Part shown: positions 797-64,000 of the stretch, one piece after another
Numbering within the stretch: the first letter of the stretch is position 1
Layout of the letters: the number at the start of each line of letters is the position of its first letter
Source: Pirellulales bacterium
GTDB lineage: Bacteria > Planctomycetota > Planctomycetia > Pirellulales > JBGAPH01
Reading direction: 5' to 3'
NCBI GenBank assembly: GCA_046349955.1
Contig: JAXMBI010000004.1
Coordinates: forward strand, 28,237 to 92,236
Length of the DNA stretch: 64,000 nucleotides
Program-made: the position numbers and the translations under genes
The notes under the pieces: model-generated
What the model saw: the letters and a program-made list of their open reading frames with translations, nothing else
The model's database searches: none
Told to the model about the DNA's origin: nothing

Positions 797-1612
797 CTAC
801 TCGGGGGAGACGGTCACGAGCTCTTGCGACACGGCCTCGATCTGCGTCGCGCCCAGCGTGGGCTGCTCTTCGGCAAAGCCGATCAAGAGTGCGAGATCGC
901 ACAGGCGATTGATCCGCCGCGGCAGGCCGCGCGTGAGGTAGAACACCGCCTCGAGGGCGTCGTTCTCGAAGATCGTGCGCGAGGCGCCCGCCGCCTTCAG
1001 CCGGTGGTTCACGTAGCTGATCGTCTCTTCCAACTGCAGCGGACGCAGCAGGCACTTGACGGCCATCCGCTCTTCGAGCCCCGGCATGCGGTCGAGCGCC
1101 GGCAACAGGCCGGGCTGGCCGACCAGGAGGAGCGTAAGCGCAGAAGCCCCTTGGTGTTCGAAGTTCAAAAGCAGCCGCACCGTCTCGAGGGCGTTGCCGT
1201 CGGCCAGCAGGTGGGCCTCGTCGATCGCCACGACGGCGTGCCGCCCGCGCTCGCAGTTTTGCAGAAACGCCCGCGACAACGCCCGCACGCTGGCCTCAAT
1301 CGAGGTCGAGCCGCCCAAATTTCCGGCGCCCATCTCTTCCGCGAGCCAGATCAGCAGTTGCGGCCCCGGCATTTGCGGAAACACCAGATGCACGAAGGGA
1401 GCGAAGGATTCGGGCAATTGGCGCTCGAGCGCGCCGACGAGCAACGTCTTGCCGACCCCGGCCGGTCCGGCCAAGAGCGCCGCTCCGCGGCGGTTCTCGA
1501 TCGTGTAGCGCAGCTTGAGCAGCGCGCCCTGGTGGGCCTCGCACGGGTAGTAGAAGGCGTCGAGGCCGCTATCGAACGGCCGACAGCTCAGGCCCCAATA
1601 GGATTCATACAT
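797..1612 (-). CDS. ExeA/GspA-type AAA ATPase, core domain only (271 aa)
   Basis: It has Walker A GPAGVGKT and Walker B VVAIDEAH. The length and layout resemble the ATPase domain of ExeA-like secretion ATPases. No C-terminal TM or peptidoglycan-binding extension is present. Confidence 0.85.
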   Translation of the reverse strand: MYESYWGLSCRPFDSGLDAFYYPCEAHQGALLKLRYTIENRRGAALLAGPAGVGKTLLVGALERQLPESFAPFVHLVFPQMPGPQLLIWLAEEMGAGNLGGSTSIEASVRALSRAFLQNCERGRHAVVAIDEAHLLADGNALETVRLLLNFEHQGASALTLLLVGQPGLLPALDRMPGLEERMAVKCLLRPLQLEETISYVNHRLKAAGASRTIFENDALEAVFYLTRGLPRRINRLCDLALLIGFAEEQPTLGATQIEAVSQELVTVSPE

Positions 1613-1674
1613 GTTGTTCGCTCACGGTTCGGGCGTCGCGATCGACGCCCAGGTGGGTCCGCGGTGCGGACCAA

Positions 1675-2886
1675 CTAACGCGGTCCGGCGCTGCCCATCG
1701 CCGAAGTGAAGTTCTCTACAATCCCCACCAGGCCCACGCCCGTGGCCTGGAGATCGTCGGTCAGCGTCGCCAGGTCATGCGCGGGGCGGCGACGGTCAGA
1801 CACTGCCAGGAGGGCGTCGATCGCTCCTTGCCGGCAGAGGGTCTGCAGAGCCAGGGCCGACAGGCCCTCCCACGGTCCGGCGTCGATCAGCACCAGCGAG
1901 TAGTACTCGCCGAGCACGCCCAGGTCGACGGCCGCCTCGAGCTTGGCCAGGAGTTGCACGTCGCTGGGCTGCGGGTTCGCCAGCGGCAACAGCGCACAGC
2001 GGTCACGCCCCGATTCGACCAGGGCCTCGGTGAGCGGCACCTGTCCCGTCAGCACCTCCTCCCAGCCCACCTGCGGCTGCACGCCCAGGCGGCGGGCTAA
2101 CTGCGGACGGGCGAAGTCGGCGTCGATCAGGCAACAGGTCGTGCCCTGCTGAGCGAGGTAGGCCGCCAGGCTGGCGACGAGCGTGGTGCGTCCTTCGCCG
2201 CGTTCCCGGCTGGTAATCGCGACGCGAGCGCCATCGCCCAGCTTGCCGAGCGTTTGGGCCAATCGCGCGAGATGTTCTCCCCGCTCGGCGACGATCGTGC
2301 GGCAGATTTCCGGCCAGAGAAAATACGGCACCTCGAGCGCCGGGCGAAACACTTCCACCTTAGGCGCCGCGGCGAACGCCGACAGCGGCTTGGCCTGAGC
2401 AGGCGCCGGCGGGGCCGCGGCCTGCGAAGTTGCCAATAGTTCCGACCAGGAAACGGTGTTCTCGTGGGCCGCCGCGGTGGCTGACATCTCGGCCCACGCG
2501 GTCGCGACGGAAGCCTCTGGTGGAGGCGGCTGCGGAGATGAAGCGTTCTCCGGGAGCGGCTTGGTGGCCGGGGCCGGAACCGCTGCAGCCTCAGGCTGCC
2601 GATCCTCCGCCGGGAGCGGTTGCGTCGTGGGCTCATCGCCGCGTTTCTTGCCCACTAAGGGGAAGCGCAGATGCGGCGCCGGCACGGCGGTCGCCTGTTC
2701 GAGGCGGAAGACGGGTTGGGCTGGCGCGCGCGGCGGCTCTGCGGGGGCCGCAGGCGCCGCCGGAGCCGCGTCCGTCGCTTGCGCGGGCTGGGGAGCGAGC
2801 TCGTGGTGCGGCGCGGGCGCGCCGCCGGCCGCCGGCCGCGGACGCTGCTGAAAGGCCTTGATGAAGGCTTGGTTGAATTCGGGCAT
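1675..2886 (-). CDS. Pro/Ala-rich protein with a C-terminal CpsD/CapB (BY-kinase)/ParA-MinD-like P-loop domain and a degenerate Walker A
   Basis: The C-terminal half reads VAITSRERGEGRTTLVASLAAYLAQQG...CCLIDADFARP...LVLIDAGP, giving Walker A', A and B spacing typical of BY-kinase catalytic domains. The Walker A Lys is replaced by Arg (GEGRTT, nt 2182-2199). The N-terminal ~190 aa are low-complexity P/A-rich. Confidence 0.7.
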   Translation of the reverse strand: MPEFNQAFIKAFQQRPRPAAGGAPAPHHELAPQPAQATDAAPAAPAAPAEPPRAPAQPVFRLEQATAVPAPHLRFPLVGKKRGDEPTTQPLPAEDRQPEAAAVPAPATKPLPENASSPQPPPPEASVATAWAEMSATAAAHENTVSWSELLATSQAAAPPAPAQAKPLSAFAAAPKVEVFRPALEVPYFLWPEICRTIVAERGEHLARLAQTLGKLGDGARVAITSRERGEGRTTLVASLAAYLAQQGTTCCLIDADFARPQLARRLGVQPQVGWEEVLTGQVPLTEALVESGRDRCALLPLANPQPSDVQLLAKLEAAVDLGVLGEYYSLVLIDAGPWEGLSALALQTLCRQGAIDALLAVSDRRRPAHDLATLTDDLQATGVGLVGIVENFTSAMGSAGPR

Positions 2887-2910
2887 GTCAGCCTCCCCCG
2901 GGCCCGGACA

Positions 2911-4116
2911 TTATTTCTCGATGCCGCCCTGCAAGCGGGCGACACCCTCTGCCGCGCCGTAGCTGCCGTCCCACACGCGCACCGGCTGCGGAGCGCCGTA
3001 CGCGGGCCCGTAATCGGGCGTTGCGGCCGACTTGGCCTCGGTCCCCATCCGCGCGGCCAGCGCTGCTGCCGGCATCGACCGGAGCTGATCGAGCTTCGCC
3101 AGCTCGGTGACGTATTCGGTTTGGGCGATGCCCATCTCCGCAGCAGCCACTTCCTTGGCCGTCAGCAGTTGCTCGAGCGAGCCTTGACCGCGGACGTTGC
3201 GGATGTGGTCGCGCTCCGACACTGCGGCCTCGAGTTCGAGCCGAGCGCGGTCGACGGCCAACTCAGCAAGTTGCCGTTCGCTGGTGGGGCGGGCGCCCTT
3301 GCGAACCAACTTTCCCAGGCGTTCGACATCGTGCTGGGCCTGCACCAACTTGGCCTGCTGCTCGGACACCGCCTTCTCGGCGGCCAGCAGATCGCGGCCG
3401 TTGCCGCGATTGAATTCCTCGAGGGCACGGCAGGCCCCAATAAACTCCTCTTGGGCGTGTGAGCGATTGGCCCGCGCCTGCTCGACCTTCATTTCCTGGT
3501 CGAGGATCGCGTTGGGTTCGCCCATCGGCGCCGAACGCATGTTGAACGAAGCGTCCGAGCCAGGGAGCGACTCGGAATCGGGCGCCCGCAGGTTCGGTCC
3601 GGCCTCGTCGTCGAACGGCGCCCCTTGGCCACGGTCGGGGGCCTGGGGAAACCGCGTCTCGCCGTGAGGCGCCGCGGAGTCGCGCGAATAGGTCGGGGAA
3701 CCGTGGCCCGCGTGGTCGTCGGGCAGCGTGGCCACCGGCGAGGGGCCCATCCAGGTGGGCGCCTCGGTCGACGATGTCGCCGTAGGGGCCTTGGCCGCGT
3801 GTTTGGTCGTAGTCGTTTTGGTCGGGGGAGTGGTCCCCTGTCGGAAGACCATGGCCGTTAGGGCGACGATCACCACCATCATGCCGGCCAGAGCGAACCG
3901 CGGCTTCGAAGTCCAATTCCAAGGGGCTGGCTGGCTCAGCGGAGGCCGCGCGGCAGGCTGCGACAAGTCCGGCATCGACAGCAAGACCGTGGCCGCGCGC
4001 GATCCGGAGCCTGCCGGCGAAGGCGAAGCGTGGTGCGGAGATTCGATGGGGCTGGTCAAGGATCCCTCCCTGGATGCTGACGGCCGCAATTTGCCCACGT
4101 TCGGTCGCCAAGGCAA
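2911..4116 (-). CDS. Membrane-anchored coiled-coil protein (chain-length-determinant/PCP-like architecture); an alternative start at 3975 is more likely
   Basis: A single TM segment (FALAGMMVVIVALTAMVF) is followed by a disordered S/T/P-rich linker and a long heptad-like region (EQARANRSHAQEEF...LAELAVDRARLELEAAVSERD...). The gene ends 24 nt upstream of the next gene on the same strand. The ATG at 3975 (MPDLSQPAARPP...) precedes the TM segment. Confidence 0.55.
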   Translation of the reverse strand: MPWRPNVGKLRPSASREGSLTSPIESPHHASPSPAGSGSRAATVLLSMPDLSQPAARPPLSQPAPWNWTSKPRFALAGMMVVIVALTAMVFRQGTTPPTKTTTTKHAAKAPTATSSTEAPTWMGPSPVATLPDDHAGHGSPTYSRDSAAPHGETRFPQAPDRGQGAPFDDEAGPNLRAPDSESLPGSDASFNMRSAPMGEPNAILDQEMKVEQARANRSHAQEEFIGACRALEEFNRGNGRDLLAAEKAVSEQQAKLVQAQHDVERLGKLVRKGARPTSERQLAELAVDRARLELEAAVSERDHIRNVRGQGSLEQLLTAKEVAAAEMGIAQTEYVTELAKLDQLRSMPAAALAARMGTEAKSAATPDYGPAYGAPQPVRVWDGSYGAAEGVARLQGGIEK

Positions 4117-4337
4117 CGCCCATGCGCCGCACGTGGTCCGTCGGCGCGTTCGGGCAAGAACATCGCCGCAGGAGAGTTATCGGTTCCGTCCGTATCGTTC
4201 TTGAGCCTTAGTCAGGTTGGGGCCTTTGGCGCGAACGCGCGGAGTTTAGGTAGACAATCCCGAGGCGCAAAGGTCGGTTTTCCACCCGGGCCGAACCCAA
4301 ACCGTCCGAGCCCCGTACCAGAGGGGAAGGGCCGGCG

Positions 4338-4367
4338 TTGCCGCGCCTCGGCGGTCAGTGCTACGAT
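4338..4367 (+). promoter_or_regulatory. Candidate sigma70-type promoter for the Cys-rich gene pair
   Basis: TTGCCG (4338-4343), an 18-nt spacer, then TACGAT (4362-4367), about 40 nt upstream of the ATG at 4408. This is a pattern match only. Confidence 0.2.
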
Positions 4368-4407
4368 CGAGTTCAGGCTTACGCAGAAATCCGCCTTCGG
4401 CCAACCC

Positions 4408-4836
4408 ATGATCACACGCCACCCACTGCCGGTCCGTCTGACTGCCCTGGTGGCAGCCGTGGCGTTGGCGCTGGGCTCGTGGTCCCCGCTGGCGGCCTGT
4501 GGGTGCGCTCCTTGCGGGGCGGCGCTCGAGGGCTGCAGTTCGGGGTGCTGCTCGGCCAAGTCCCTCTGCCAGAGCTGTTGTGACCGCCAGGGCGAAGACG
4601 AATCGCCCGCAGATTGCCTGGCCGACGGTGGCTGCCTGTGTCACCCAGTGAGCGCTCCGACTTCGGAGCAACCGCGGGTTCCGCAGTCCGACCAAGTGGC
4701 GCAGGCCTTCGTGGTCCTGCCCAGCGCGATCAGCGCGCTGCCGAGCCTAATCGAGCCGACGGCGGTTGTCGCGGCTCCCCCTCTCTCGCGTTCGGGCGCG
4801 GAACTCCGCGTCCTCTACTGCTCGCGTCTGGAATGA
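4408..4836 (+). CDS. Exported (possibly lipoprotein) Cys-rich protein, 142 aa
   Basis: The internal ATG at 4408 gives MITRHPLPVRLTALVAAVALALGSWSPLAAC, a signal peptide with an L-A-A-C lipobox-like motif. Twelve Cys lie within the next 48 residues (CGCAPCG..GCSSGCC..SLCQSCC..DC..GGCLC), and one more lies near the C-terminus. The upstream part of the listed ORF (4201-4407) looks non-coding. Confidence 0.55.
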   Translation: MITRHPLPVRLTALVAAVALALGSWSPLAACGCAPCGAALEGCSSGCCSAKSLCQSCCDRQGEDESPADCLADGGCLCHPVSAPTSEQPRVPQSDQVAQAFVVLPSAISALPSLIEPTAVVAAPPLSRSGAELRVLYCSRLE

Positions 4837-4903
4837 TCCGCTTCTCGCGATCGACTTGCTGATTTCGTTTTCACAAGTGTTCTCGAGTTTGGAGTTTCGT
4901 TCC

Positions 4904-5068
4904 ATGTACACGGCTTTGATGCTGATCTCGTTCTTGCTTCCCACCTCCCTGGTCTCGCACGCCGCCACGGCGGAGTGCTCTTGCGCCAAGGCTTGCGCTT
5001 GCTGCAAGTGCTGCGACACCGGCACGTGCACCTGCGGCGACGCCTGCAAGTGCGCCTGCTGCAAGTAG
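4904..5068 (+). CDS. Small exported metallothionein-like Cys-rich peptide, 54 aa
   Basis: The ATG at 4904 has a GGAG about 11 nt upstream. The sequence is MYTALMLISFLLPTSLVSHA followed by ATAECSCAKACACCKCCDTGTCTCGDACKCACCK. That tail has 13 Cys in 34 residues, all TGC codons, with no His or aromatic residues. Third positions are G/C-rich, like the neighbouring genes. A hairpin terminator follows. Confidence 0.55.
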   Translation: MYTALMLISFLLPTSLVSHAATAECSCAKACACCKCCDTGTCTCGDACKCACCK

Positions 5069-5145
5069 CGCAGGTTCAGACCGCAAGTCGCCGCTTCGGA
5101 ACTGCCTGCTGAGTTGCCGAGGTGGCGCCTGCTGATTGACGCAAG

Positions 5146-5176
5146 AGGCCCCCGGAGTGCTTGCACCCGGGGGCCT
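5146..5176. terminator. GC-rich hairpin between convergent genes (likely a bidirectional terminator)
   Basis: AGGCCCCCGG (5146-5155) pairs with CCGGGGGCCT (5167-5176) as a perfect 10-bp inverted repeat with an 11-nt loop, followed by TTGCATT. Confidence 0.5.
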
Positions 5177-5349
5177 TTGCATTGATGCCCCCGGGCGGCG
5201 TCCGGCTTGCGCCGGCCTTGCCCGGGGCTATTCTCGGGTCGCCCCTGCCGGGGCTGCATGCCGCGCCTCACGCTTCGCAGATGCCAAAGCGCAACTTCAA
5301 AACTGGCGCTGCGGACTAATATGGCACAACCCGAAAAACAGTCAGAGCA

Positions 5350-6909
5350 CTAAAAGGCCTGGTAGAAGACTTCGCACAGGCGGCCCAGCGTTTTGCCGGC
5401 CTTCTCCGTGCCGCTCGCGTCGGGCATGTGGACCAGGTTCACGAACATCGCGATCGCCACTTCGCGGCCGCTATGACATGTGCCGTAGCCGGCCAGGGCC
5501 TTGCTCGTAAGCAGGCTCGTGCCGTTCAGGGCGTTGTTCCAGAGGAGCGTGCCTGTTTTGGCCTGAAACTTTCCATAGGCCAGGCTGTCCTTCGGCGCCA
5601 CGCCGGCCAGAGTGCCGTCTTGGCCAAGGATGGGCATTGCATCGCGATAGACTTGGAAGTCGGGGCGTTCGGCCATCGCTCGCAGCAGTTGCACGGCCGC
5701 TCGCGGGGTGATGAAGTCGGCCCGGTCGCCGCCGGCGCCGCCGCCAAAGGAGATCGTTGCGGTGTCGACGCCCAGGCCCTCGAGAATCGCCTGTTGGCGG
5801 CGCAGACCCTGGCCCAGCGTCCGTTCGCCGTGTTTGGCCGCCAACAGCAGCGGCAGCGTGCTGGCGTGCAGGTTGTGGCTGACCTTGAGGATCAGTTTGG
5901 CTTCTTCCGAGAACGGCGGCGATTCGAGTTCAGCCACCTTGGTGAGCTTGCCGTAGCCGTCGGCGGGCGGCAGCTTGCCGGTCGAGTTGGGCGCGAGGGC
6001 CGAAGCGGTCATTTCCACCCCGGAGCGGCGCAGGGCCTCGATCAGCAGCGTGCGGGCGAAGGAGGCCGCGTCGCCGACCTCGTGGATCGTCACGAAGGGG
6101 CGGTGTCCCAAGGGAATTTGGCCGCGGACGGTGATCCGCTCCCCCTCCGAGGAGACGTCGATCGCCACCTTCTCGCCCGCCTTCACGGTGTCGACGCGGG
6201 CGTCGACTTGCACGAACTCGGTTTGCGGGCGCCAGCGCACTCGAGCCGGCGTGCCAATCGTGGTGGGGGTGATCTCGAAGTCGATCAGGTTGTCGTTCAC
6301 GATGATGGGCGTGAGTCGACCGGGGCCGCTGCCGGTGCCGGCCGCTTTGTCGAACAAGCGGTCGTCGATGATCACGTCTCCCTCGATCCGCTTGATCTCG
6401 ACCTCGGTGACCTGGCGGGCCAACTCCTCGAGTCCGGCCAGTGGGTCGGGCTCGGTGAGTTCGGCCTTGGCCGAGAAGCCTGCGTAGATGTGGTCGGTGT
6501 TGGCGAAGGCCACGTGCCCCTGCGGATCGGTGCGGCCGCCGAACGTCAGGTCGCCCGAGGCGACCAGGATCAGGTCCCCCTTGAGCACGCCGTTTTCGAT
6601 CGGCCCGCGGGCATACACCGGGGTGCGGAAGCGGTGGTTGGCGCCGAAGGCCTCGAGCGCCGCGGCGGTCGAGAAGAGCTTGGTCGTCGAGGCGGGGGCG
6701 AACAGCTTGTCGGGGTTGTGGGCGAACAACACCTCGCCCGTCTTGCGGTCGACGACCAGCAGGCCCCAATGGGCGTGCTTGTATTCGGGGGCATCGATGA
6801 TCTGGCTGACCTCGCCCGCCAAATCGGCCGCCTGCGCGGCGTGCGTCGGCGCGCTGGCCAGGGCCGCGAGGACCAGGCTGGGCACGAGAAACCGAACACG
6901 ACGTCGCAT
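5350..6909 (-). CDS. dacB: D-alanyl-D-alanine carboxypeptidase/endopeptidase, PBP4 family (peptidase S13)
   Basis: It has SxxK (ASTTK), SxN (SHN) and KTG (KTGT) in the right order and spacing. The ATG at 6909 gives a signal peptide, MRRRVRFLVPSLVLAALASAPTHAAQA. The longer listed ORF start (7083) adds a non-signal extension. Confidence 0.85.
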   Translation of the reverse strand: MRRRVRFLVPSLVLAALASAPTHAAQAADLAGEVSQIIDAPEYKHAHWGLLVVDRKTGEVLFAHNPDKLFAPASTTKLFSTAAALEAFGANHRFRTPVYARGPIENGVLKGDLILVASGDLTFGGRTDPQGHVAFANTDHIYAGFSAKAELTEPDPLAGLEELARQVTEVEIKRIEGDVIIDDRLFDKAAGTGSGPGRLTPIIVNDNLIDFEITPTTIGTPARVRWRPQTEFVQVDARVDTVKAGEKVAIDVSSEGERITVRGQIPLGHRPFVTIHEVGDAASFARTLLIEALRRSGVEMTASALAPNSTGKLPPADGYGKLTKVAELESPPFSEEAKLILKVSHNLHASTLPLLLAAKHGERTLGQGLRRQQAILEGLGVDTATISFGGGAGGDRADFITPRAAVQLLRAMAERPDFQVYRDAMPILGQDGTLAGVAPKDSLAYGKFQAKTGTLLWNNALNGTSLLTSKALAGYGTCHSGREVAIAMFVNLVHMPDASGTEKAGKTLGRLCEVFYQAF

Positions 6910-34445: not shown

Positions 34446-35405
34446 TTAGCCGCGGGGATGAAACTGTCGGTGGACGTTTTTGAGCCTCGTCGGGTCGACG
34501 TGGGTGTAAATCTGGGTAGTGGCGATGCTCGAATGCCCGAGCATTTCCTGTACCTTGCGCAGGTCGGCGCCGCCGGCCAGCAAGTGCGTGGCAAAGCTGT
34601 GCCGCATGGTGTGAGGGCTGGCCGCCTGGGGAATTCCCGCCCGGCCGGCATACTTCTTGAACAGCTCCCAAATCCGCTCGCGGCCCAAGGGGCGGCCGCG
34701 CCCCGAAAGCAGCAGGGCTTTCGGGGGCGGATCGAGTCCGGCCGCGGAGTCGGGGCGCTCCTGCTCGAGGTAGGCCCGAATGGCGGCGACGGCTCGATGG
34801 TTGATGGGCACGAGGCGCTCCTTGTCGCCTTTGCCCCGACAGCGGCAAAAACCTTCGTCCAGGTGGACATCGGCCAGGGCCAGGCTCGAAATCTCCGAAG
34901 CCCGGCAGCCGGTGGCGTACAGTAATTCAAGCAAAGCGCGGTCGCGCCGCCAATGGGTTTCTCCCTCGAACGGGGCCACAAACAAGCGTTCGAGCAGCTC
35001 CTCGCTGAGCACGTTCGGCACGCGCTGCCAGAGTTTTTGGGTTCCCAAAAGCTCGGCCAGGTTGTCGCGGAGCAGCCCCTCGAGCTGCAAATAACGGAAA
35101 AACACCTTGAGGGAAATCACATGGCGGGCAATGCTCGCCGGGGCCAGCCCCTTGCGGTGCAGCCAACCGGCGTAGTCAGCCAGGTCCTGGATCGAGAGCC
35201 GGGTCGCGTTGCGGCCCCCCAGCCACTGGCCAAACCGACGCAGGTCGCGCGCGTAGGCCGCCACAGTGTTCGCCGACAGGTGGCACTCGCTCCGCAGGTA
35301 GCCCAGAAAGGGCTCCTCGTAGCGCCCCACGCCGACAGCGGCCGGGGCGGCCGCGGAGGCCGTCTGTTGCAGTCGAGTCAGGCGGGTGCGACGAGGGATG
35401 GTCAT
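34446..35405 (-). CDS. xerD: Tyrosine site-specific recombinase, XerD/XerC type
   Basis: LLYATGCRASEI (Arg I), GKGDKERLVPI, HTMRHSFATHLL (H-x-x-R) and LGHSSIATTQIYTHV (catalytic Tyr) are all present. The ATG at 35405 gives a 319-aa protein. The XerD-versus-XerC call is tentative. Confidence 0.85.
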   Translation of the reverse strand: MTIPRRTRLTRLQQTASAAAPAAVGVGRYEEPFLGYLRSECHLSANTVAAYARDLRRFGQWLGGRNATRLSIQDLADYAGWLHRKGLAPASIARHVISLKVFFRYLQLEGLLRDNLAELLGTQKLWQRVPNVLSEELLERLFVAPFEGETHWRRDRALLELLYATGCRASEISSLALADVHLDEGFCRCRGKGDKERLVPINHRAVAAIRAYLEQERPDSAAGLDPPPKALLLSGRGRPLGRERIWELFKKYAGRAGIPQAASPHTMRHSFATHLLAGGADLRKVQEMLGHSSIATTQIYTHVDPTRLKNVHRQFHPRG

Positions 35406-35643
35406 CGGGGAGCGACGGGTGGGGAGCGAGCCTGCGGATCGTAGGGGGCGGGCGCGGCCGGCAACCAGTCGCTTCGCCGGCGCCTGGCATCGCTTTACGG
35501 TCGGCCATTGCCCAGATCCGACTTCATCCGCGTTATACGATGAAGTAAAGTTTCGCCTGTTCGTCATAGAGCGACCGGGGCGCCTGGATCCGGTCGCAGG
35601 GCGAGCGGCTTGGCGTGAGCCGGCCGACAGTCTTTCCTGGCGG

Positions 35644-36864
35644 ATGCACGGCATGCAACGCGTCGTCTTTGAAGACCCCTACCGGTTCATCCCACCGCAC
35701 CGCGGCCGGCTCTGGCCCGATTTCATTCAGCTCTGGCTCGACGGCTACCTGGCGCGGGCGTTCGGCGTGGTCGAAGTCGAGTGCCGGGGCGTGGAACACG
35801 TGCGCCGCTCGATCGACGCCGGGCACGGCATCCTGCTCGCGCCCAACCACAGCCGCACGGCCGACCCCATGGTGCTCGGCATCTTCTCGCGGAAGATCAA
35901 GCGGCATCTCTACGCCATGGCGAGTTGGCACTTGTTCAAACACTCGCGCTTTCAGTCGTTCATGATCCGCCGGATGGGCGGCTTCAGCATCTATCGCGAG
36001 GGGGCCGACCGCGCGGCCGTGAACGAGGCGGTCGACGCGCTCGTGAACGCCGAACGGCCGCTGGTGATCTTTCCCGAAGGGGTGACCACCGGTTCGAACG
36101 ACTTGGTCTATCCGCTGCTCGATGGGCCGGCGTTCATCGCCCGCACTGCGGCCAAGCGCCGGGCCAAGGCCGGCGCCCGGGGAGGCGTGGTGGTTCATCC
36201 GGTGGCGATTCGACACACCTTCGAAGGGGACGTCGAGGCGACGCTCGCGCCGATCGTGGCGGAGCTCGAAGCCCGGCTGACTTGGCGCCCGCACCCGGAG
36301 CGCCCCTTGGCCCAGCGCGTGCTCGAGGTGCAGCTTGCCTTGCTCGAACTCAAGGAGCGCGCGCACTTAGGAGCTCCGCAGCGCGGCGACGTGCAGCAAC
36401 GGCTCACGCGGCTGATCGAACAACTGCTCGCGCCCGTGGAGCAAGAATGGAATGGCGGGCCCAACGAAGACCATGTCGTGGCCCGGGTCAAGAAGCTGCG
36501 GGCAGCGATGTTGCCTGACATGATCGCCCGCAAGGTCACCGCGGAGGAAAACGCTCGGCGTTGGCGTCAGCTCGCGGATCTTTACCTGGCGCAGCAGCTT
36601 GCGTTCTACCCACCGGCCTACTGCCACGAATTGACGCCGGACCGGCTGGTGGAAACCGTGCTGCGGTTGGACGAAGACATCAACGACGATGCGCGGGTCA
36701 TCCGGCCCTGGAAAACGGTGATCGAGGCGGCGCCGGCCATCGAAGTGCCGGCCGACGCCGGGCGCAGCTACGACGAGCAGCTTTCGAGCGAAATCAGCCG
36801 CACGCTGCAAAGCATGCTCGACGCCTCGCGCCGCCGGCAGACGCCGCTCGCGACGGGTTGCTAG
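35644..36864 (+). CDS. Lysophospholipid/glycerol-phosphate acyltransferase (PlsC-like) with a C-terminal extension
   Basis: It has the H(x)4D motif in LAPNHSRTADP and block III FPEGVTTG. The start is at 35644 or 35653. Confidence 0.8.
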   Translation: MHGMQRVVFEDPYRFIPPHRGRLWPDFIQLWLDGYLARAFGVVEVECRGVEHVRRSIDAGHGILLAPNHSRTADPMVLGIFSRKIKRHLYAMASWHLFKHSRFQSFMIRRMGGFSIYREGADRAAVNEAVDALVNAERPLVIFPEGVTTGSNDLVYPLLDGPAFIARTAAKRRAKAGARGGVVVHPVAIRHTFEGDVEATLAPIVAELEARLTWRPHPERPLAQRVLEVQLALLELKERAHLGAPQRGDVQQRLTRLIEQLLAPVEQEWNGGPNEDHVVARVKKLRAAMLPDMIARKVTAEENARRWRQLADLYLAQQLAFYPPAYCHELTPDRLVETVLRLDEDINDDARVIRPWKTVIEAAPAIEVPADAGRSYDEQLSSEISRTLQSMLDASRRRQTPLATGC

Positions 36865-58926: not shown

Positions 58927-61131
58927 TCAATTCGCCGCGGGCGGGCTGGCGAGGCGGCGCATCGCCTGTTCGGCGTTTTCACCGCTGGGGGCCTGCGGGT
59001 CCTCGAGTTTCTGCCGGGCCAGCTTTTGCTCGGCGTGCGGGTTGAGTCCGTCGAGTTCGAGGGCGCGCGCGGCCTGCGCCGCGGCCTCAGGGTCGCCCGC
59101 CAGGCTGAGCGCCCAGGCCAACCGCGCGTGCCCTAGCGCCCGGTTGGGAAACAACTCGACAGCGCGGCGAAACGCTTCCACCGTTCCCGCCAAGGCCGAC
59201 GCTTCGCCCGCCCGATAGGCCGCCAGCCGCCAGATCCCCACTTGCGACCAGCCGGGCGCCGAGTGCGGATCGAGGGCGAGCATGCGCGCCGCGGCCTGTT
59301 CGAACCGCTGCCAACCGTCGGCGGTGGGCTGGGCGCGCCACGCTTGAAACCGCAACTCGGCCAGGCCGTTCCAAGGCTCAAGCGCACGCGGGTCTGCGGC
59401 GGCGCCGGCAAGGAGCAAGTTCTCAGCCTGAAAGCCATCGCCTTTCGCTGCTGCATCCCGCGCGCGGCGATCGAGCTGTCGCATTCGATACCCAGGCCAA
59501 GTCGAGGTCGACCAACACAGCACCGCGAGGCACAGCCCGCCCAGGCCCAGCGGCCAGCGGAAGGACTTTGGCAGAGTGACCGTTGCCCCAGGGCTTGCCA
59601 GATTGAGGCTCAGCGCCAGCAACAACAGCAGCGAACCCGAAAGGGACGGAAACGCCAAGGCGCCCCCCGCCTGCAAGTTCAAGGCGAGGGCGCCCGCGGC
59701 CAAGAGCGCCGCTCCGGACGGAAAGCGGCCGTTGACGATCCAGGGCCCGTGCAGCGCGCCGACGCCGCTGATCGCCAGGCCGCCCACCAAGCACAGTCGC
59801 AACGACGGCGGCACCTCGGTCCAAGGACCAAGCAGCCAACTGGCGGCAAACCCCACCGCGCCCCCCAACACAACCCAGCGCGGGTCGACAGGCTCCGGGA
59901 CCGTATCGAGCTTCGTGCCCCTGGCCCTGACCACGCTCCAGCCCACTGCCGCTAGCGCCGCCACCAGCATCGCCAGCGCCGGCAACCCAGCGGTCGCCCC
60001 GACTTCGAACAGCAGGTTGTGTGGGTCCGCGATGTTCTCGCTCGCCTGCGGCAGCTTGTAGCGCGGGTAGTTCGCCTGAAAGTTGCCCGGCCCGACGCCC
60101 AACCAGGGATGATCGGCGATGAGCGCGGCGGTCGACTCCCAGTATTCGAGGCGATAGCCGAGCGACTTGCGCGCTTCGGTGAGAAGTTTCAAATCAATCG
60201 CGCCCAGCCACCCCAATCCCGCCAACACCACTGCGCCGCCGAGCAAGATCCCAAGGCCGGCGCCGGCGGCTCGGCGAAGCGGCCAGCCGCGCGCTGCGCT
60301 GTAGACGGCGAGTATGCCTGCACTGGCCAGCCCGGCTAGGTAGCCGCTGCGGCTCTTGGTCAGCACCAGCCCCAGGCCCATAACCGCTGCCGCGGCCAGC
60401 GGCGCGATCCAGGCCGTTGGCGGCCGTCGCGCGAGCGCCGTGACGACGCCGGCCCCGAGCGCGGCCACAGCCCACGCCACCAGGTAACCCGCCAAGGAAT
60501 TGGTGAGCGCGAACGTGGCCACGGGTTCTAAACTGGCCAGCCGCTGTTCGAACAAAAACCGCTCCGGCGAGCCCGGGGGCGCCGAGATGCCGACCTCCTT
60601 GAGCATCTCTTCCGGAGCGCGGGCATACTCAGCGCGCGTCCAGGGCAACTCCCAGCCAAACTGATAGAAGGCATAGGCGGCGAGAAACACTCCTGCGCCA
60701 ACTCCCACGGCCACGGCCGCACGCGCGAGTGGCGGGCGCGAGAGAGTTTGTCGAAATACGAACCAAGCCGCCCCCAATCCCACCCATTCCCACAACATAT
60801 TGAGGGCGGGTCGCGGCGCGCCGGTGCGCAGCGCCGCTAGTCCCGCCAGGCTATGCCAGGCGAGCAGCCCCGCCAGCAGCCAATCTGCGAGCTCCCAGCG
60901 CAGACGCACGGGGCCCCTGCGGGCTGCGGCGATCAGCCAGGCCGACGCGAGGGCAATCCAGGCCACGACGAGCAGTTGTCCGTCTCCGTGGGTCGCGGCG
61001 GCCTCGGCCGGAAACGCCAACCGCGCGGCGAAGAGTCCCAGGGCGATGGAGAGGATGCCGAGTTCCGTCGACTCGAAGCCGCCGCTTACCGGCCGACGGT
61101 GGCTCGCCTTTTGCGTGTGCTTCTGCGCCAT
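58927..61131 (-). CDS. O-antigen ligase/polymerase (Wzy_C)-like polytopic membrane protein with C-terminal TPR repeats
   Basis: The ATG at 61131 opens a protein with about 12 or more hydrophobic segments and the Wzy_C-like loop (TKSRSGYLAGL). A TPR-like C-terminus follows (AWALSLAGDPEAAAQAARALELD...). Confidence 0.7.
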   Translation of the reverse strand: MAQKHTQKASHRRPVSGGFESTELGILSIALGLFAARLAFPAEAAATHGDGQLLVVAWIALASAWLIAAARRGPVRLRWELADWLLAGLLAWHSLAGLAALRTGAPRPALNMLWEWVGLGAAWFVFRQTLSRPPLARAAVAVGVGAGVFLAAYAFYQFGWELPWTRAEYARAPEEMLKEVGISAPPGSPERFLFEQRLASLEPVATFALTNSLAGYLVAWAVAALGAGVVTALARRPPTAWIAPLAAAAVMGLGLVLTKSRSGYLAGLASAGILAVYSAARGWPLRRAAGAGLGILLGGAVVLAGLGWLGAIDLKLLTEARKSLGYRLEYWESTAALIADHPWLGVGPGNFQANYPRYKLPQASENIADPHNLLFEVGATAGLPALAMLVAALAAVGWSVVRARGTKLDTVPEPVDPRWVVLGGAVGFAASWLLGPWTEVPPSLRLCLVGGLAISGVGALHGPWIVNGRFPSGAALLAAGALALNLQAGGALAFPSLSGSLLLLLALSLNLASPGATVTLPKSFRWPLGLGGLCLAVLCWSTSTWPGYRMRQLDRRARDAAAKGDGFQAENLLLAGAAADPRALEPWNGLAELRFQAWRAQPTADGWQRFEQAAARMLALDPHSAPGWSQVGIWRLAAYRAGEASALAGTVEAFRRAVELFPNRALGHARLAWALSLAGDPEAAAQAARALELDGLNPHAEQKLARQKLEDPQAPSGENAEQAMRRLASPPAAN

Positions 61132-61259
61132 GACGTAGGAAGGGTATGTCGCCTGCGCCGGGGGGAAACTTGCTTCGACGTCGCGCGACCGGCCGCCTAC
61201 AATGCGCGTCCCGGCGCAAGCCGGACTTTCGCTCCCACCAGACACTAGCACGTACGACA

Positions 61260-61766
61260 ATGCAAGACACGGTCCGTTCTCTGATGCAGACGCCGCCGAG
61301 AGTGATCGACAGCTCGGCCTCGCTGGCGGAACTCGAACGCGCCTTCCTCGAAACGGGCGTCCGCAGCTTTCCCGTGGTCGAGCGCGGCCGGCTGGTGGGA
61401 ATCGTCAGCCGCAGCGATGTCGTGCGGCAACTGTCGGTCGAACAGACCTTGGCGGAAAACGCCTCTTACGCCGAGCAAGAGGTCAGCGGCTTCGAAGACG
61501 AGCAGGAAGAGGCCGAACAGGCCGACGACCGGGTGGGGGATCAGGTTGGCCAGCGGCTCGAGGGGCTGCACGTGTCCGACGTGATGATTCGCCGCGTTCA
61601 CACGATCGCGCCCGACGCTTCGCTCGGCGAGGCCGCCCAGCTGCTCGTCTCCAAACGCATTCATCAGGCGCCGGTGGTGGAGGGAGACAAGGTGGTCGGC
61701 CTGCTGTCGGCCCTCGATTTCGCCCGCCCCTTCGCCGAGGGCCGCGTGCGCTGGGAGCGGTCATGA
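61260..61766 (+). CDS. CBS-pair domain protein
   Basis: It has two CBS motifs (FPVVERGRLVGIVSRSDV and APVVEGDKVVGLLSALDF) separated by an acidic linker. Confidence 0.8.
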   Translation: MQDTVRSLMQTPPRVIDSSASLAELERAFLETGVRSFPVVERGRLVGIVSRSDVVRQLSVEQTLAENASYAEQEVSGFEDEQEEAEQADDRVGDQVGQRLEGLHVSDVMIRRVHTIAPDASLGEAAQLLVSKRIHQAPVVEGDKVVGLLSALDFARPFAEGRVRWERS

Positions 61767-63379: not shown

Positions 63380-63847
63380 TTAGCGACCGATCGAGGCCGG
63401 GTTGCGGGCCAGGAAGTCGCGCGGCCCGCGGGTCGTGTAGTACGGATAGGTGACCGAGCCAGCGTTCTGCACGTTGTAGCCGTCGCCTGCGTTGGCGGCT
63501 TCTTGGTTGCCAGCCACGCGCTCGGCGTGGTTGCTCGTGTGTCCCGCCGCGCAGTCGCGGCAGCGATTATGCTTGGCCCAGAAGAAGCCCTTATACGGCT
63601 TTCCGCAGCCCTCGCAGGTGCTGCCCCCGCAGCCTCCGCCGCAGTTGCCGCAGCCTCCGCCACAGTTTCCGCAGCCCGGGCTCAGGTAGCCGTCGGTGCT
63701 CCAGTCGCCGCCGCAGCAGGTCTGGTAGCAGCCCGACCACATGCCACAGCCGTCCCAGGAGTGGCAGAACAAACGCTCGAGGGCATAGCAACCGCTCGAG
63801 GTCGAGAGCATGAGGGCCGCGAAGGCGGCCAGCAACAGTCGTCGCAT
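63380..63847 (-). CDS. Exported Cys/Gly-rich protein (possible lipoprotein), 155 aa
   Basis: The ATG at 63847 gives MRRLLLAAFAALMLSTSSGC. There are 15 Cys, including GCGNCGGGCGNCGGGCGG. The C-terminal YPYYTTRGPRDFLARNP motif is one I believe recurs in planctomycetal hypothetical proteins. Confidence 0.6.
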   Translation of the reverse strand: MRRLLLAAFAALMLSTSSGCYALERLFCHSWDGCGMWSGCYQTCCGGDWSTDGYLSPGCGNCGGGCGNCGGGCGGSTCEGCGKPYKGFFWAKHNRCRDCAAGHTSNHAERVAGNQEAANAGDGYNVQNAGSVTYPYYTTRGPRDFLARNPASIGR

Positions 63848-64000
63848 GGTATTTGGATTCCTTTCCACGAGGCTGGGTCTTGCGCTTGGGGTACAGGGCG
63901 CCCGAGGCGGGCGGGCGCTCCCGTAAGCGGGGGTGGCTTCCGGGGGCCGGCGGCGGCCCGCGGCGCGGTTTCGCGCGGCGTTGGCCCGCCAGCAGCAGCC

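Follow-up and report, generated by a model that had tools for sequence, protein, structure and literature searches.

Two Cys-rich, export-type small proteins of Pirellulales and their possible role in metal buffering outside the cytoplasm

Analysis of a 64 kb stretch of DNA from a Pirellulales bacterium (contig JAXMBI010000004.1; the whole stretch is hereafter called the window) revealed two adjacent open reading frames on the plus strand, ORF1 and ORF2, whose products are very rich in Cys. ORF1 and ORF2 are genuine, conserved and co-occurring genes under purifying selection, and represent an undescribed, rare and under-annotated two-gene family of a small Pirellulales group. The function that is ranked first, although tentatively, is periplasmic soft-metal buffering, in which a Sec-exported, metallothionein-like ORF2 may act together with a lipid-anchored, Cys/His-rich ORF1. 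The more specific proposal, that ORF2 would be the first natural Sec-exported bacterial metallothionein and, with the lipid-anchored ORF1, would store or buffer Cu(I), Zn or Cd with no modifying enzyme, is doubtful and rather on the unlikely side.

Among all stop-free stretches of 34 residues in the six frames of the window, the one in ORF2 is the densest in Cys, with 13, followed by that of ORF1, with 9; all the others contain 8 or fewer, and Cys accounts for 0.9% of the codons in 15 confident genes of the window. The mature ORF2 peptide, which follows the predicted export segment, has its 13 Cys in 34 residues (38%), encoded by TGC codons throughout and arranged in CxC, CC and CKC motifs; hydrophobic residues are absent and those between the Cys are small or charged. 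His, Phe, Trp and Tyr are missing from the five main-clade variants compared, while one His is found in the distant homolog L008. The Cys pattern, CxC-3-CxCCxCC-4-CxC-3-CxCxCC, is the same in six compared variants, L008 gaining one extra CxC, so that the number of Cys is odd, 13 or, in L008, 15. The mature peptide is made of two 13-residue pseudo-repeats, CSCAKACACCKCC and CTCGDACKCACCK, with DTGT between them, and its net charge is about zero in all variants, with several Lys in the tail. Metallothioneins are operationally recognized, at the sequence level, by a low mass (<10 kDa), a high content of Cys in CxC, CC or CxxC motifs and the absence or scarcity of His and aromatic residues; judged from its composition, mature ORF2 has all these features, in agreement with the original prediction, which had also given the coordinates, the sequences and the 67 nt gap of the two co-oriented ORFs, as well as the number and codons of the ORF2 Cys and the lack of His and aromatic residues, correctly.

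Hydrophobic, export-type N-termini had been predicted for both ORFs, and by sequence they are present. In ORF2 the hydrophobic stretch comprises 16 residues with a Pro in the middle, which is short for a typical membrane anchor, and it is followed by small residues at positions -3/-1 (S-H-A in the window; A-A-A, S-L-A and G-F-A in relatives). In L008 a Lys at position 3 precedes the stretch. On the basis of length and flanking charges, a cleavable signal with N-in/C-out orientation is more likely than an anchor.

Relatives of the pair are few. Six homologous cluster representatives were found for ORF1 among 5.8 billion protein clusters, and an exhaustive phmmer search of 1.84 billion representatives gave two true relatives of ORF2, P0005 with 79% identity and P0006 with 49% identity, the latter being 62 residues long with 15 Cys; a third match, P0007, was discarded as compositional, since it is a eukaryote-type CCCH zinc-finger repeat protein. 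A word-indexed homology search with ORF2 gave no match, the exact ORF2 sequence of the window was not found in a collection of 15 billion proteins, and no source names any relative of the pair beyond "hypothetical protein". Eight distinct variants of the pair were obtained from public metagenomes and one Pirellulales metagenome-assembled genome, which is the only species-representative genome with a relative: these are the window (including the near-identical L004 and L005), L001, L002, L003, L009, L010, L012 and L008. Each fetched locus with either gene also has the other, in a constant order and with a spacer of 65-78 nt in the eight variants; the co-occurrence that the original prediction had proposed to verify is therefore seen in 8 of 8 variants. 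No relatives were found in a plasmid collection or in a viral collection, and thus nothing suggests a mobile cassette for metal resistance.

All indels between variants are in frame. The ratio of nonsynonymous to synonymous substitution rates (dN/dS) is 0.16-0.53 for ORF1 and 0.05-0.44 for ORF2 when compared with the window, reaching 0.69 between the relatives L003 and L009. In the same genome pairs ORF2 dS is 2-7 times below that of ORF1, and nucleotide conservation ends exactly at the ORF2 stop codon. The GC content at third codon positions (GC3) is 0.78 for ORF1 and 0.91 for ORF2, in a window with 67% GC, as expected from the native codon usage previously claimed; the low dS and the high GC3 of ORF2 fit a strong codon bias in a highly expressed gene, conservation of a promoter or translation-initiation region, or the two together.

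A 174-residue ORF runs antisense to ORF2 and has its wobble positions in common with it. It was rejected as a gene, as its extent and N-terminus vary among loci and its reach past ORF2, from 20 to 308 nt, is non-homologous from locus to locus; it is a shadow ORF. Gene callers preferred this shadow ORF to ORF2 on 4 of the 11 related contigs examined, and for this reason the ORF2 family is systematically under-represented in protein databases.

In ORF1, R4 and R10 precede the hydrophobic segment LTALVAAVALALG, whose maximum Kyte-Doolittle value over 13 residues is 2.4. The invariant first Cys follows [LVAG][ARGS][AS] in all variants; the resulting motifs LAAC, LSAC, AAAC and AGAC are acceptable as lipoboxes, and VRAC and GGSC fit more poorly. 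Thus, the lipobox-like L-A-A-C originally described is present in the window, but it is only partly conserved in relatives. The Cys residues of ORF1 are at positions 31, 33, 36, 43, 47, 48, 54, 57, 58, 70, 76, 78 and 138, and the 12 Cys that had been counted within 48 residues correspond to residues 31-78. The invariant core comprises Cys 31, 33, 47, 48, 70, 76 and 78, plus the C-terminal one, and the remaining Cys are gained or lost among variants, leading to 12, 13 or 15 per mature protein; since both number and parity vary, a fixed intramolecular disulfide framework is unlikely. Next to the last CxC a His is retained, in CLCH or, in L008, HCGC, and several H-C dyads are found in the L008 homolog.

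The Cys-rich domain is followed by a Pro/Ala/Ser-rich linker, with predicted local distance difference test (pLDDT) values below 50 over most of its length in AlphaFold2 models; for the whole ORF1 the pLDDT is 41 (6 sequences) and no fold was found, as would be expected of proteins whose folding depends on bound metals. The Cys-poor Pro/Ala/Ser tail of the original prediction has indeed this composition, but it ends in an invariant motif, LR[VI]L[YH]C[ST][RW][LI]E-COOH, which holds the 13th Cys and was found in 8 of 8 variants, including L008, whose ORF1 is only 31% identical; synonymous changes are present inside the motif. A PEP-CTERM sorting signal in this tail was rejected, since PF07589 gave no match and "IEP" is followed by a hydrophobic stretch of just 9 residues. 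The idea that ORF2 and the Cys domain of ORF1 are paralogs was also rejected (BLASTP E=3).

For the metal-buffering function we infer export, cleavage, lipidation, metal binding and an ORF1-ORF2 interaction, in a scheme where two Sec-exported, thiol-dense and largely unstructured small proteins would work in the periplasm or in the cell envelope. The ORF2 signal peptide, of about 20 residues, would be cleaved off to leave a 34-residue peptide with two CxC/CC-rich half-units, which may hold soft metals, Cu(I) most likely, or Zn and Cd, in thiolate clusters outside the cytoplasm. Through its first Cys, ORF1 would be anchored in a membrane as a lipoprotein, or it would be released at that point, and it would display a second Cys/His-rich metal-binding domain on its Pro/Ala-rich spacer, possibly acting as acceptor, donor or anchor for ORF2. 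Several features argue for metal binding: the 38% Cys of ORF2, with CC and CxC neighbors that would not be readily paired within the peptide, the conserved small residues between them, the ORF1 His kept next to Cys together with the variable Cys parity, and the very narrow phylogenetic distribution of the pair. Furthermore, the GC3 and the depressed dS of ORF2 suggest that it may be highly expressed.

The pair is accompanied by conserved non-coding sequences, whose positions are reported in Table 1 with those of the coding features. The element upstream of ORF1 is more conserved, in five relatives, than most of ORF1; a covariance model finds it in 7 of 7 close-clade variants searched and does not find it in the distant L008 and L011. 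RNAalifold proposes a plus-strand hairpin, whose pairing is kept in 7 of 7 one-sided changes, with no compensatory ones; the z-score of the minimum free energy is about +1 on both strands, no better than shuffled sequences, and Rfam gave no match. Both a direct repeat, TATCG(G)TTC, and a palindrome, GCGCGAACGCGC, are contained in the element, which could be a leader RNA or a promoter/operator, the latter perhaps in common with the divergent exopolysaccharide (EPS)-like gene; its connection with the pair is uncertain, and its conservation suggests a regulated expression of the pair. A sigma-70 promoter scan of positions 3900-5500 found nothing. The ORF1-ORF2 spacer, which is AT-richer, keeps its high identity even in pairs with an ORF1 dS of about 2, and the GGAG, the putative ribosome-binding site of ORF2, is at the same distance from the ORF2 ATG in L008. 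For spacer and ORF2 the high identity and the low synonymous divergence point to a constraint at the nucleotide level, and an internal promoter, an element controlling translation or a very strong codon bias could be its source.

The hairpin originally reported after ORF2 is also confirmed: its stem, AGGCCCCCGG/CCGGGGGCCT, is invariant in close relatives, with a variable loop and a poorly conserved 3' flank around it, and in L008 a canonical hairpin with a T-run is found at the equivalent site. A simple terminator scan did not call the window hairpin because its T-run, TTTGCATTG, is weak. Between the ORF2 stop codon and this hairpin a second, less conserved one, GCCGCTTCGG...CCGAGGTGGC, is predicted at 5069-5135 (plus strand), and the entire 117-nt 3' region folds at -64 kcal/mol. 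The possibility of a Cys-sensing leader peptide or attenuator was rejected, since the conserved terminator and a convergent gene follow ORF2 and thus nothing is left downstream to be regulated.

Table 1. Features of the ORF1/ORF2 locus, in window coordinates unless another locus is named, with nucleotide identity to relatives
Feature	Position	Strand	Identity to relatives	Details
Conserved non-coding element	4156-4266	+	82-100%	about 110 nt; 142 nt upstream of ORF1
Gap after the element	4267-4407	+	54-82%	
ORF1	4408-4836	+	54-92% (ORF1 body)	142 residues
ORF1 signal peptide (predicted)	4408-4497	+		residues 1-30; ends L-A-A ahead of Cys31
ORF1 Cys-rich domain	4498-4641	+		residues 31-78; 12 Cys; ends GGC[LV]CHP
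ORF1 Pro/Ala/Ser-rich variable linker	4642-4791	+	54-82%	residues 79-128; least conserved coding part
ORF1 invariant C-terminal motif and stop codon	4792-4836	+	75-98% (last 45 nt of ORF1)	SGAELRVLYCSRLE; conserved in variants
ORF1-ORF2 spacer	4837-4903	+	86-100%	GGAG at 4891-4894, 9 nt before ORF2 ATG
ORF2	4904-5068	+	83-99%	54 residues
ORF2 hydrophobic N-terminal export segment (predicted)	4904-4963	+		MYTALMLISFLLPTSLVSHA; residues 1-20
ORF2 mature Cys-packed peptide and stop codon	4964-5068	+		ATAECSCAKACACCKCCDTGTCTCGDACKCACCK; 34 residues
3' flank		+	54-77%	
Terminator-like GC hairpin	5141-5180	+		about 75 nt past ORF2; -32 kcal/mol
Antisense shadow ORF	4747-5271	-		174 residues
Annotated antisense shadow ORF, L002	5079-5417			
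Annotated antisense shadow ORF, L003	890-1318			
Annotated antisense shadow ORF, L004	1056-1526			
Annotated antisense shadow ORF, L005	551-934			

In the close clade the pair is flanked by envelope genes on both sides. The upstream genes, which are divergent, form an EPS-type set and encode a coiled-coil protein, a Wzc-like tyrosine-kinase ATPase and an AAA ATPase associated with PEP-CTERM; the downstream gene is convergent and encodes a PBP4 D-Ala-D-Ala carboxypeptidase. In L008, L007 and L011 the upstream neighbors are GroES/EL, RlmN and an S9 peptidase, and the downstream ones an unknown protein, TM2, an aminotransferase and ArgG. As the pair is kept amid unrelated neighbors, the two genes are a conserved unit and a self-contained module. 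Family scans of the neighbors covered 41 ORFs of the window and the called genes of L001, L007, L008 and L011; no MNIO/DUF692, DUF2063, LanM/LanB/C, YcaO or maturase-type radical-SAM protein is encoded in the 64-kb window or in about 10 kb around the pair in L008, L011 and L007, the sole radical-SAM match near the pair being the RlmN rRNA methyltransferase, 5 kb away in L011. Indeed, as had been noted, neither a maturase for RiPPs (peptides that are made on the ribosome and then modified) nor a metal efflux gene is adjacent to the pair, in the window or in the contexts of its relatives.

In the window, the three co-directional genes at 797-4116 (minus strand) resemble an EPS chain-length/export set: an AAA ATPase associated with the PEP-CTERM system, which scores under the family cutoff, a tyrosine-kinase ATPase that is Wzc/EpsG-like and has a long Pro/Ala-rich N-terminus, and a family-less coiled-coil protein. 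Genes typical of Pirellulales are found, such as those for a DUF1559 protein with an N-methyl motif, a DUF7133 protein with cytochrome c and a PEP-CTERM protein (21812-22840, minus strand). Other genes on the minus strand are a Wzy_C O-antigen-ligase-like gene at 58927-61260 and, at 34446-35654, a tyrosine recombinase of the phage-integrase family with XerC/D-like domains, which adjoins an epimerase and an acyltransferase. Finally, a 162-residue ORF at 63380-63868 (minus strand), with a lipoprotein-like signal, LSTSSGC, and Cys/Gly-rich repeats, CGNCGGGCGNCGGGCGG, is a second predicted exported Cys-rich protein in the window; it has no Pfam match, and its sequence shows no relationship with those of ORF1 and ORF2.

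No family was found for ORF1 or ORF2 in Pfam and NCBIfam at E<=1, and PDB sequences gave no usable match to either, no metallothionein being among the PDB matches at E<=10. In its properties ORF2 is similar to eukaryote-type and fungal Cu-metallothioneins (the vertebrate metallothionein beta-domain, the 25-residue Cu-metallothionein of Neurospora) and to MymT: they have in common the small size, at least 30% Cys, the CxC/CC/CKC motifs, the small or charged linkers, the lack of His and aromatic residues, the tandem half-units and the absence of a predicted stable fold. Differently from all of them, ORF2 has an export-type segment and a constant, Cys-rich partner of export type. Metallothioneins are normally cytosolic, and the definition includes the absence of an export signal; conversely, the predicted 16-residue hydrophobic segment and the small-x-small site are present in all variants of ORF2. 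MymT is a small Cys-rich cytosolic metallothionein from a formerly non-annotated ORF (PMC7558416). SmtA/BmtA (Metallothio_Pro) are likewise bacterial and Cys-rich, and the short strings KCAC of ORF2 and CLC of ORF1 are similar to the signature of SmtA, at chance level. SmtA is cytosolic, with a zinc-finger fold, His ligands and aromatic residues, whereas mature ORF2 contains neither His nor aromatic residues and is not matched by PF02069; the difference from SmtA/BmtA originally claimed is thus upheld.

Exported thiolate copper proteins are known. Csp1 of M. trichosporium is a Tat-exported, Cys-thiolate Cu(I) store that binds 13 Cu(I) (PMC7558416), and bufferins are small Sec-exported proteins with Cys, which build up in the periplasm and serve there as copper buffers (PMC11626156). 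Export alone is therefore compatible with metal binding, and the export signal, which the original prediction considered as unexpected, is unusual for metallothioneins but has precedents among Cys copper binders. Csp1 is a pre-folded four-helix bundle tetramer, with about 120 residues and Tat export, whereas ORF2 is a 34-residue mature peptide with no RR motif, no sequence similarity to Csp1 and no PDB sequence match. The bufferins (BufA, DUF2282/BUF_6/12Cys RiPPs) are small Cys proteins with a Sec signal, and the ORF2 N-terminus is export-type by sequence. Bufferins, however, depend on MNIO (DUF692) and DUF2063 genes next to their own, and their folded core of 60-100 residues contains 4, 6 or 12 Cys. 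DUF2282 of Pfam does not match ORF1 or ORF2, BUF_6/12Cys having no model in the libraries used. The pair lacks the defining features of both the Csp1 and the bufferin families. An adjacent radical-SAM maturase, the feature of SCIFF/ranthipeptide systems, is also missing near the pair in the window.

Outside metal-binding systems, chlamydial OmcA is a small Cys-rich lipoprotein, produced from a polycistronic mRNA with OmcB and included in the disulfide-linked outer membrane complex (PMC2811131). OmcA/OmcB and the pair are both tandem Cys-rich proteins of export type, the lipobox of ORF1 being LAAC in the window and VRAC or GGSC in relatives; unlike OmcB, the partner is a 54-residue peptide and not a 60-kDa protein, the Cys density is much higher, and ORF1 and ORF2 have no homology to OmcA/OmcB families (Pfam, E<=1). 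The planctomycete YTV wall proteins, which are exported and recovered from wall preparations (PMC8567305), are Cys- and Pro-rich like the pair, but they are far larger and widespread in Planctomycetales, whereas the pair is limited to a narrow Pirellulales clade; no YTV motif is present in ORF1 or ORF2 and Pfam gives no YTV match. By analogy, the closest architectural counterpart, which the original prediction did not name, would be the chlamydial omcA/omcB operon together with the planctomycete Cys-rich wall proteins.

This analogy leads to an alternative explanation that is possible and almost equally likely as the metallothionein one, which is ranked first: ORF1, as a Cys-rich lipoprotein, and ORF2, as a multivalent Cys "rivet", may be disulfide cross-linkers that stiffen the planctomycetal envelope, oxidized after export and bound through intermolecular disulfides to one another or to further proteins of the wall. 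Chlamydiae and Planctomycetes both belong to the Planctomycetes-Verrucomicrobia-Chlamydiae (PVC) superphylum. The pair would parallel the OmcA/OmcB architecture (PMC2811131), and Cys-rich proteins are contained in planctomycete wall preparations (PMC8567305). Moreover, both proteins are export-type by sequence and exported thiols are prone to oxidation; the odd number of ORF2 Cys always leaves at least one of them for an intermolecular bond; the Pro-rich spacer of ORF1 is typical of wall proteins; the main-clade pair lies between Wzc/Wzz-like EPS genes and PBP4, with no metal gene nearby; and the high GC3 and low dS suit an abundant structural protein. However, the lack of Pfam matches at E<=1 places the pair neither in the chlamydial OmcA family nor with the YTV repeat, the envelope-gene synteny is gone in L008, and most Cys of ORF2 are hard to pair within a peptide where they make up 38% of residues in adjacent CC and CxC. 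A promiscuous cross-linker would not need such a strict conservation of small residues and spacing, it offers no role for the His kept beside Cys in ORF1, and the family is limited to a tiny clade, while a core component of the wall should be more widespread. The recovery of Cys-rich proteins from planctomycete walls and the envelope genes next to the main-clade pair (PBP4, Wzc/Wzz-like EPS genes) weigh at the same time against a metal-buffering pair, as do other observations: K or R are absent ahead of the ORF2 hydrophobic stretch in 5 of 6 compared variants; ORF2 has no homology to any curated metallothionein family in Pfam, NCBIfam or PDB; a single BLASTP comparison with human MT2A gives a match of 17 residues only, with E=0.04; and no P-type ATPase, RND/CusCBA, multicopper oxidase or MerR/CsoR/ArsR regulator adjoins the pair in any context. 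In addition, most known periplasmic Cu(I) proteins use Met and His, because exported thiols tend to be oxidized. The original interpretation is partly supported: it holds as regards genes, composition and conservation, and in function the metallothionein reading is about as likely as an envelope component, which had been the third of the original alternatives.

The remaining explanations are far less probable. ORF2 could be a secreted, disulfide-knotted bacteriocin, toxin or signal, with ORF1 as immunity protein, carrier or co-peptide; this appears improbable, despite the small export-type peptide with its invariant Cys framework, the partner predicted to be membrane-tethered and the stand-alone two-gene module that keeps its identity on genome relocation. 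Indeed, peptides of the defensin or bacteriocin type differ from mature ORF2, whose net charge is about zero and whose surface has no hydrophobic or aromatic residues; it also has an odd number of Cys, neither an ABC exporter nor a C39 peptidase adjoins the pair, identical frameworks and a very low dN argue against an arms-race molecule, and no copies were found on plasmid or viral contigs. Slightly less probable still is that ORF2, and perhaps ORF1, is a RiPP precursor whose N-terminus serves as leader and signal and whose Cys are converted to thiooxazole, thioether or lanthionine-like groups by enzymes encoded elsewhere, yielding a secreted metallophore or natural product. Genes for RiPP enzymes nearly always cluster with that of the precursor, and none of the maturases searched for around the pair was found; there is no match to DUF2282 or other Pfam families, and the constant neighbor is a second Cys-rich export-type protein, not an enzyme. 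In favor of such a precursor are its size, the presence of Ser and Thr besides Cys, and the bufferins, which are Sec-signal-bearing Cys precursors that bind periplasmic copper (PMC11626156, PMC12452194). Of similarly low probability is an uncleaved anchor at the ORF2 N-terminus with the Cys tail in the cytoplasm, which would make it a membrane-tethered cytosolic metallothionein or an iron-sulfur/metal relay. The missing K/R before the stretch and the several Lys in the tail would agree with it, and MymT and similar cytosolic metallothioneins are small Cys-rich ORFs that lack annotation (PMC7558416); on the other side, the stretch is just about 16 residues long and has a Pro in its middle, the 15 residues right after it are net neutral, the Lys of the distant homolog favors N-in/C-out, a small-x-small site is conserved after the stretch, and the partner ORF1 has a classical signal peptide by prediction.

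If the pair does bind metal outside the cytoplasm, it would be an exception to the rule that metallothioneins are cytosolic and would represent a third, enzyme-independent route to periplasmic soft-metal buffering, besides Csp1 and bufferins. If instead the two proteins are cross-linkers, they would provide Planctomycetes with a chlamydia-like Cys-rich envelope module, which would bear on the long-running question of how the envelope is stabilized in the PVC superphylum. In either case, the family is invisible to annotation and offers a concrete case of small proteins missed in high-GC genomes.

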